The position numbers were made by a program, and so were the translations under genes. From a virus (Duplodnaviria > Heunggongvirae > Uroviricota > Caudoviricetes): a stretch of 11,292 nucleotides of DNA. The stretch lies in IMG/VR virus record IMGVR_UViG_2548876860_000007. One strand, given 5' to 3'. The notes beneath the pieces are model-generated. The model saw nothing but the letters and a program-made list of their open reading frames with translations, searched no databases and was not told the origin of the DNA. Position 1 is the first letter of the stretch. Each line of letters begins with the position of its first letter. Positions 2,806 to 3,547 of the stretch are shown here, in pieces.

Positions 2806-3547
2806 ATGAAAAACATTGCGGCAGTTGGGGTTCTTGAACGTATTCGCAGACTTGCACCACAGGGGGGCGGTTCCACCGTACCGGACGGTGGAGGAGTGGC
2901 GGGAATGGCAACTTGCTGAAGGACGAAAACGCAGCGAGGAGATTAACCGCCTGAATCATCAGGTGCGGGTTGAAAAAATCCTGAACCGTGCGGGCATCCA
3001 GCCGCTTCACAGGAAGTGCTCATTCGGGAACTACCGGGTGCAGAACGACGGTCAGCGCCATGCTCTGAGCCAGGCGAAATCCATTGCCGATGAATTGATG
3101 ACCGGATGTACAAACTTCGTGTTCAGCGGTAAACCTGGTACCGGTAAAAATCACCTGGCAGCAGCGATTGGCAATCGGCTGATGGCGAAGGGGAGAAGCG
3201 TGATTATCGTCACCGTGTCCGATGTCATGAGCGTGTTGCATGACGGCTACGACAACGGCCAGTCCGGGGAAAAATTTTTACAGGAGCTTTGTGGAGTTGA
3301 CCTTCTGGTCCTTGATGAAATTGGCATGCAGCGGGATACGCGCAACGAGCAGGTCACGCTGAACCAGATAGTCGACCGCAGAACGGCTTCGATGCGTAGT
3401 GTCGGAATGCTGACGAACCTGAATCACGCAGCGATGAGCACACTCCTCGGAGATCGGGTGATGGACCGTATGACCATGAATGGTGGTCGTTGGGTGAATT
3501 TTAACTGGGAGAGCTGGCGGTCAAACGTTGGACGTCAGGGTATGTGA
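2806..3547 (+). CDS. DnaC-like helicase loader (AAA+ ATPase), apparently frameshifted at a G6 run (2862-2867); the uninterrupted frame is 2816..3547
   Basis: Walker A FSGKPGTGKNHLAAAIG and Walker B LLVLDEIG; strong overall resemblance to E. coli DnaC as recalled. ATG 2806 with AGGGGG SD gives MKNIAAVGVLERIRRLAPQGG..., which stops after 35 codons. The DnaC-like body continues in the +1 frame (VPPYRTVEEWREWQ...). The frame switch coincides with the GGGGGG homopolymer. Confidence 0.75.

Follow-up and report, generated by a model that had tools for sequence, protein, structure and literature searches.

The window, the whole stretch of DNA analysed here (11,292 nt), is the entire draft contig AIBD01000226.1 (GCA_000446625.2). 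It carries a standard Rac/lambdoid replication module consisting of a YdaT-family ORF, an initiator gene of the HTH_36 type, a helicase-loader gene and a DUF1627/YdaW-family gene (Table 1). The product of the initiator gene goes by different names in phage records, namely 'DNA replication protein O' (two records), 'DNA-binding protein' and 'primosomal protein I'.

Table 1. Position of the loader locus, its parts and its two flanking genes in the window
Feature	Coordinates	Strand	Remarks
Replication-initiator-type gene, HTH_36	1837..2799	+	ydaU position; intact; upstream of the loader
Shine-Dalgarno-like sequence CAGGGGGTGA	2789..2798	+	7 nt spacing to ATG 2806
DnaC-like (YdaV/PRK12377-type) helicase-loader pseudogene	2806..3547	+	742 nt; based on the PGAP annotation of the identical NC_013361 sequence
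Frame-A fragment	2806..2919	+	37 codons and TGA (stop 2917-2919); read directly
Frame-B mechanical ORF	2816..3547	+	TTG start without Shine-Dalgarno sequence; +1 frame, 243 codons
G6 homopolymer, 1-bp insertion site	2862..2867	+	intact allele has G5
DUF1627 (YdaW-family) gene	3573..4328	+	intact here; downstream of the loader

An earlier note on this DNA described a DnaC-like loader gene that is split by a +1 change at a run of six G residues, and direct reading of the window confirmed this. The run, GGGGGG, is bounded by A and C. Translation from ATG 2806 (frame A) yields MKNIAAVGVLERIRRLAPQGGGSTVPDGGGVAGMATC*, a product of 37 codons and not of 35, as had been stated. Homology to the N-termini of helicase loaders is confined to the first ~20 residues of this fragment (MKNIAAVGVLERIRRLAPQG). 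Frame B contains a Walker A motif (GKPGTGKN) and a Walker B motif (DLLVLDE), both of which align with those of DnaC. Within this frame, the homologous loader body extends from approximately position 2867 (AVPPYRT...) to the stop codon and includes the AAA+ domain.

The two possible starts differ in their translation signals, as the note had also claimed. ATG 2806 is preceded at a suitable distance by CAGGGGGTGA, whereas the sequence 5' of TTG 2816, GACGTGTCATGAAAAACA, was inspected and has no Shine-Dalgarno-like purine run. The Shine-Dalgarno-like sequence overlaps the TGA stop codon of the initiator gene (2797-2799), which suggests translational coupling of the loader with this upstream gene. 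Both its first eight bases (CAGGGGGT) and its distance to the ATG are kept in phage orthologues.

To locate the break, both frames were compared with the N-termini in the family alignment (phage POCJ13, PhiR5_2, Rac YdaV and DnaC). The frame switches between residues 19 and 21 of this alignment, at codon 20/21 and exactly at the G run. Residues 1-19 of frame A, continued by frame B from AVPPYRTVEEW onward, align consecutively to the intact orthologues and to E. coli DnaC. Since both frames contribute successive parts of the same alignment, the two ORFs did not come together by chance. An uninterrupted frame spanning the DnaB-binding N-terminal helices and the AAA+ domain was not found: it is broken at codon 20/21, and frame A ends at the stop codon at 2917. 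The locus is therefore classed as a pseudogene of the family rather than a functional member.

Several other features were recorded in the window. Two divergent small regulator-like ORFs, at 604-1023 (- strand) and 1124-1405 (+ strand), are followed by a YdaT_toxin-family ORF at 1389-1814. The racR/ydaS/ydaT arrangement has been described for Rac (PMC5700373), and the segment 604-1814 mirrors that order. A hok/sok type I toxin-antitoxin system lies at 6400-6724 (Rfam sok, 114.9 bits; HOK_GEF ORF, 6512-6724). In a related contig (L010), an insert of ~1.1 kb with an rve-family transposase (362 aa) splits hok/sok near the equivalent of window position ~6560. Two tRNA genes (10739-10814 and 10895-10971) are located downstream of the Q antiterminator region. 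The set comprises a tRNA with a CAT anticodon, which is called Met by ARAGORN and tRNA-Ile in RefSeq relatives, and a tRNA-Arg (TCT). An Rfam scan of the window returned sok and the two tRNAs elsewhere and nothing at the loader locus.

The loader gene after removal of one G

Removal of one G from the run creates an ORF of 741 nt, which encodes 246 aa (~247 aa in the earlier note). This repaired gene is identical at 741 of 741 nt to the gene for the intact protein WP_000788938.1 of E. coli O157:H7 strain 9234, and the extra G (position 2862) is the sole difference between the two genes. Because of this identity, the insertion is considered the only lesion in the gene and evolutionarily recent. 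The same protein is annotated as intact in strain 20.1. The intact allele shares the start codon, the Shine-Dalgarno sequence and the neighbours (YdaT-family, HTH initiator and DUF1627 genes) with the window, but it has five G residues (G5), while the window has six (G6) and a frame broken at codon 20/21.

Comparison with orthologues, as proposed in the note, showed that intact homologues initiate at the same ATG and not in the downstream frame. The intact orthologues are 741 nt long, with the exception of Rac ydaV (747 nt). Orthologues with 76-90% identity (POCJ13, phiSTEC1589, PhiR5_2 and Rac ydaV) consist of a single ORF and lack a G run here.

To classify the product, family profiles were searched with the repaired (one-G-removed) sequence, and the following scores apply to this sequence only. 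It matched NCBIfam PRK12377, an 'ATP-binding protein' subfamily, with 500.5 bits (cutoff 389) over profile positions 1-245 of 248. Pfam IstB_IS21 was matched with 70.9 bits (cutoff 24.1), and Bac_DnaA was matched as well. The alignment with E. coli DnaC (PDB 6QEL/6QEM) covered residues 2-241 with E=4.7e-74, so that the parallel to DnaC drawn in the note holds for the repaired protein. With the DnaC equivalog NCBIfam NF005931, the repaired protein scored 309.4 bits, which is below the cutoff of 357, and it is therefore a phage/prophage paralogue distinct from DnaC. Its identity is 48% to DnaC, 80% to Rac YdaV and 90% to the 'DnaC-like helicase loader' of phage POCJ13. All three are homologous over their full length from residue 2, and Walker A, Walker B and the N-terminal helices line up with those of the repaired protein. 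Unlike these loaders, the gene in the window is frameshifted.

A copy with the same defect is already annotated. In E. coli O26:H11 str. 11368, the locus ECO26_RS13845 (NC_013361, 742 nt) is designated by PGAP as a pseudogene, 'ATP-binding protein, frameshifted'. For the draft assemblies, the stored calls consist of a 169-aa fragment from GTG 3038 to 3547, and in one case (L011) no gene was called. Thus, the draft calls hide the frameshift, whereas PGAP flags it correctly.

A second homopolymer was noted in the downstream DUF1627 gene. Both the window and O26 11368 have A8 in this run (3684-3691) and an intact gene. In O157:H7 strain 9234, the corresponding run is A7, and PGAP marks the gene as frameshifted. 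Thus, homopolymer indels have disrupted one gene of this module in one lineage and another gene in another lineage (A7 in strain 9234, G6 in the haplotype of the window).

Distribution and history of the G6 allele

The earlier note had considered that the extra G might be a sequencing or assembly error, in which case the gene would really be intact. Homopolymer indels are classic errors of some sequencing platforms, and the window is a short draft contig. We therefore counted the alleles in 5,426 complete E. coli genomes, taking records with at least 99% identity. The native G6 sequence (80-mer) was found in 110 records of complete genomes, among them the reference O26:H11 11368, and the G5 sequence (79-mer) in 363. 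No full-length match to a G7 sequence (81-mer) was found in the 5,426 genomes. The G7 query gave one record at ≥99% identity, apparently a partial match of 31 nt (SCU-171), and its best listed hits were G6 sequences at 98.8%. This record was not among the listed hits, and its assignment to SCU-171 agrees with the partial match of 31 nt that the G6 and G5 queries gave. The other ~1,100 records obtained with the G6 query fell into the 95-99% identity band, and seven out of seven sampled from these cover 79 nt, the length of the G5 form. Intact G5 is thus about 10 times more common than G6, and approximately 90% of the close alleles are G5 and in frame.

The allele was equally consistent in independent assemblies. 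A stretch of 901 nt around the site is shared with 100% identity by at least 40 complete genomes, among them O26:H11 11368, other O26 strains and one O111:H11 strain. The same mosaic prophage is present in seven other independent NCBI/SRA assemblies with ≥99.95% identity. G6 was found in all seven draft/SRA assemblies whose contig covers the tract (of eight in all, with the source contig counted). In other lineages of the same collection, G5 was called consistently, and G6 co-segregates with one 2.6-kb haplotype, unlike a random error. A sequencing error specific to this contig is excluded, and the probability that the extra G is an error of sequencing or assembly in it is negligible.

This haplotype was then compared between prophages. 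Positions 1382-3997 of the window (2.6 kb) have the same sequence as the Rac-like prophage in O26:H11 11368 (100% identity), including G6. Over the same interval, the nearest G5 carrier differs by two substitutions and one other homopolymer indel besides. Beyond this block, identity between the window and 11368 drops to 85-92%, or no match exists. The prophage that harbours ECO26_RS13845 has a different backbone, with a Rac-like left arm that carries recE/kilR and another right arm, whereas the flanks of the window match other prophages. The window is in fact a mosaic of three parts (1-1376, 1382-3997 and 3954-11292). Its left immunity arm (1-1376) shares ~96% identity with a strain 20.1 prophage. 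For the right arm (3954-11292), a prophage of strain 2013C-3264 matches at 99.66% identity; the replication module of that prophage differs and encodes DnaT-like and lambda-P-like proteins. For the window as a whole, no record with at least 80% coverage was found among the 5,426 complete E. coli genomes; the best coverages were 79% at 96.8% identity and 73% at 99.0% identity. This collection thus does not contain the exact mosaic.

According to the simplest reading of these comparisons, a single G5-to-G6 event would have occurred, and the module would then have moved by recombination between lambdoid prophages, or its flanks would have been replaced. The single origin is deduced from the shared 2.6-kb haplotype. 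We also considered an independent recurrence of G6 in the two backbones and judged it unlikely, as the 2.6 kb around the run are identical in both. With one 2.6-kb haplotype in two prophage backbones, the G6 allele is usable as a marker of lineage and recombination.

Strain 20.1 (NZ_AP027170.1) carries both alleles in different prophages, a G6 copy at 2515442-2516342 and an intact G5 copy (L007 3566-4306). The G5 copy encodes exactly the protein that a repaired G6 copy would produce. Given this identical intact protein from a co-resident prophage, trans-complementation and gene conversion are plausible, and the G5 prophage may mask the G6 phenotype in trans.

Recoding, phase variation and downstream starts as possible alternatives

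Another explanation raised in the note was that the G run controls expression. G6 could cause programmed +1 frameshifting or transcriptional slippage, by which small amounts of complete loader would be made, or could be one state of a reversible G5/G6 phase variation of replication competence. In favour of this, a P-site tRNA-Gly on GGG could re-pair with GGG within the run after a +1 shift, the downstream frame is undamaged, and both G5 and G6 are found in nature. Moreover, a stable 9-bp hairpin begins 3 nt past the run. This hairpin (2871-2893) has a 9-bp stem and a 5-nt loop, UUCCACCGU ACCGG ACGGUGGAG, and the RNA fold of 2868-2950 has a minimum free energy of -29.3 kcal/mol (z=-2.85 vs. 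shuffled sequences).

However, the shift site is not conserved, as the orthologues with 76-90% identity are single ORFs without a G run. The codon that follows the run in frame A is GGC, and neither a stop codon nor a known hungry or rare codon is present there to drive a +1 shift. The combination of G_GGG_GGC and a hairpin rather favours a -1 shift, which would lead into the third frame and to a stop codon near 2952 and would be unproductive. We also compared the site with +1 sites of the prfB type. It resembles them in the G-rich, Shine-Dalgarno-like AGGGGGG at the junction and in the +1 change that is needed to continue, but no slippery codon stands before a stop codon here, the orthologues do not conserve the site, and G5, which is in frame, is the usual form. 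Transcriptional slippage occurs efficiently on A/T runs that are long (8-9 or more), and not on G6.

The hairpin itself was rejected as a recoding stimulator, since it is the same in intact G5 alleles and favours the wrong frame. Phage orthologues with 85-90% identity differ from it at several stem positions. Because the intact G5 alleles are identical apart from the G, the hairpin has not been selected for recoding. At most, it may have promoted slippage of the polymerase at the run, or it may be due to chance. No recoding signal that directs ribosomes into the productive frame was found at the run or in the downstream fold. Overall, the locus has neither a conserved two-frame layout nor a slippery motif with a stimulator toward the productive frame, as would be expected for programmed frameshifting.

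The allele distribution also differs from that of a phase-variable locus. Only G5 and G6 were seen, G7 was not found, and G6 is bound to one 2.6-kb haplotype and uniform in the seven assemblies, unlike what frequent switching would produce. Taken together, control of expression by the G run, whether through recoding or phase variation, is very unlikely. We regard it as scarcely probable that the G6 tract, possibly aided by the hairpin, permits +1 slippage at a low but meaningful level or reversible switching from G6 to G5. If it did, replication competence of the prophage would be throttled and not abolished, and the loader would be retained as a contingency switch in the O26:H11-type lineage.

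Finally, we asked whether a functional loader with an altered or truncated N-terminus could be produced from a start within frame B, at TTG 2816, GTG ~2960 or GTG 3038. Frame B is open from 2816, and the 169-aa product called from position 3038 in the drafts still matches IstB_IS21 and Bac_DnaA. None of the three starts, however, has a Shine-Dalgarno sequence, and none is used by an intact homologue. Each of the resulting proteins would lack the first conserved helix, and those from the two later starts would lack the second as well. In DnaC, the counterparts of these two helices make contact with DnaB (PMC4705694). A functional protein from any of these starts is accordingly most improbable.

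Probable loss of the loader and its meaning for the prophage

Of the three explanations offered in the earlier note, an inherited inactivating mutation of the prophage stands, while an error in sequencing or assembly and control by slippage do not. On the basis of the sequence comparisons, the extra G is very probably a genuine, recent and lineage-inherited 1-bp insertion, which has turned the helicase-loader gene of the prophage into a pseudogene with a presumed loss of function.

We propose the following course of events. A gene for a DnaC-family AAA+ loader in a lambdoid/Rac-type prophage would have changed from G5 to G6, most likely by replication slippage. Ribosomes that start at ATG 2806 would read 20 authentic residues and then 17 out-of-frame residues before they halt at 2917. 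The AAA+ body lies in the +1 frame, in which no start is served by a Shine-Dalgarno sequence. As a result, no single polypeptide would connect the two N-terminal helices that bind DnaB with the ATPase domain, and the prophage would have lost its own loader. The mutation is carried on a single haplotype of the replication module (2.6 kb), which is present in at least two prophage backbones, presumably owing to recombination between lambdoid prophages.

It was previously shown that DnaC residues 8-11 and 31-44, which belong to the first two helices, contact the C-terminal domain of DnaB and trap the ring in an open state (PMC4705694). Residue ~20, where the frame breaks, lies between the counterparts of these DnaB-contact segments, and therefore the native product should not be able to bind or load DnaB normally. 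The undamaged downstream frame would fit a very recent mutation; it would equally agree with a gene that is still used by means of +1 slippage at GGG-G at a low level.

The frameshift is already known, and the locus is an ordinary pseudogene of a decaying prophage that is flagged in RefSeq. Beyond annotation, the finding matters little and adds a further case of decay by homopolymer indels in the lambdoid/Rac-type replication modules of EHEC-type E. coli. For the prophage itself, it probably means that no loader of its own is available, and that replication after induction would rely on co-resident prophages or on the host.
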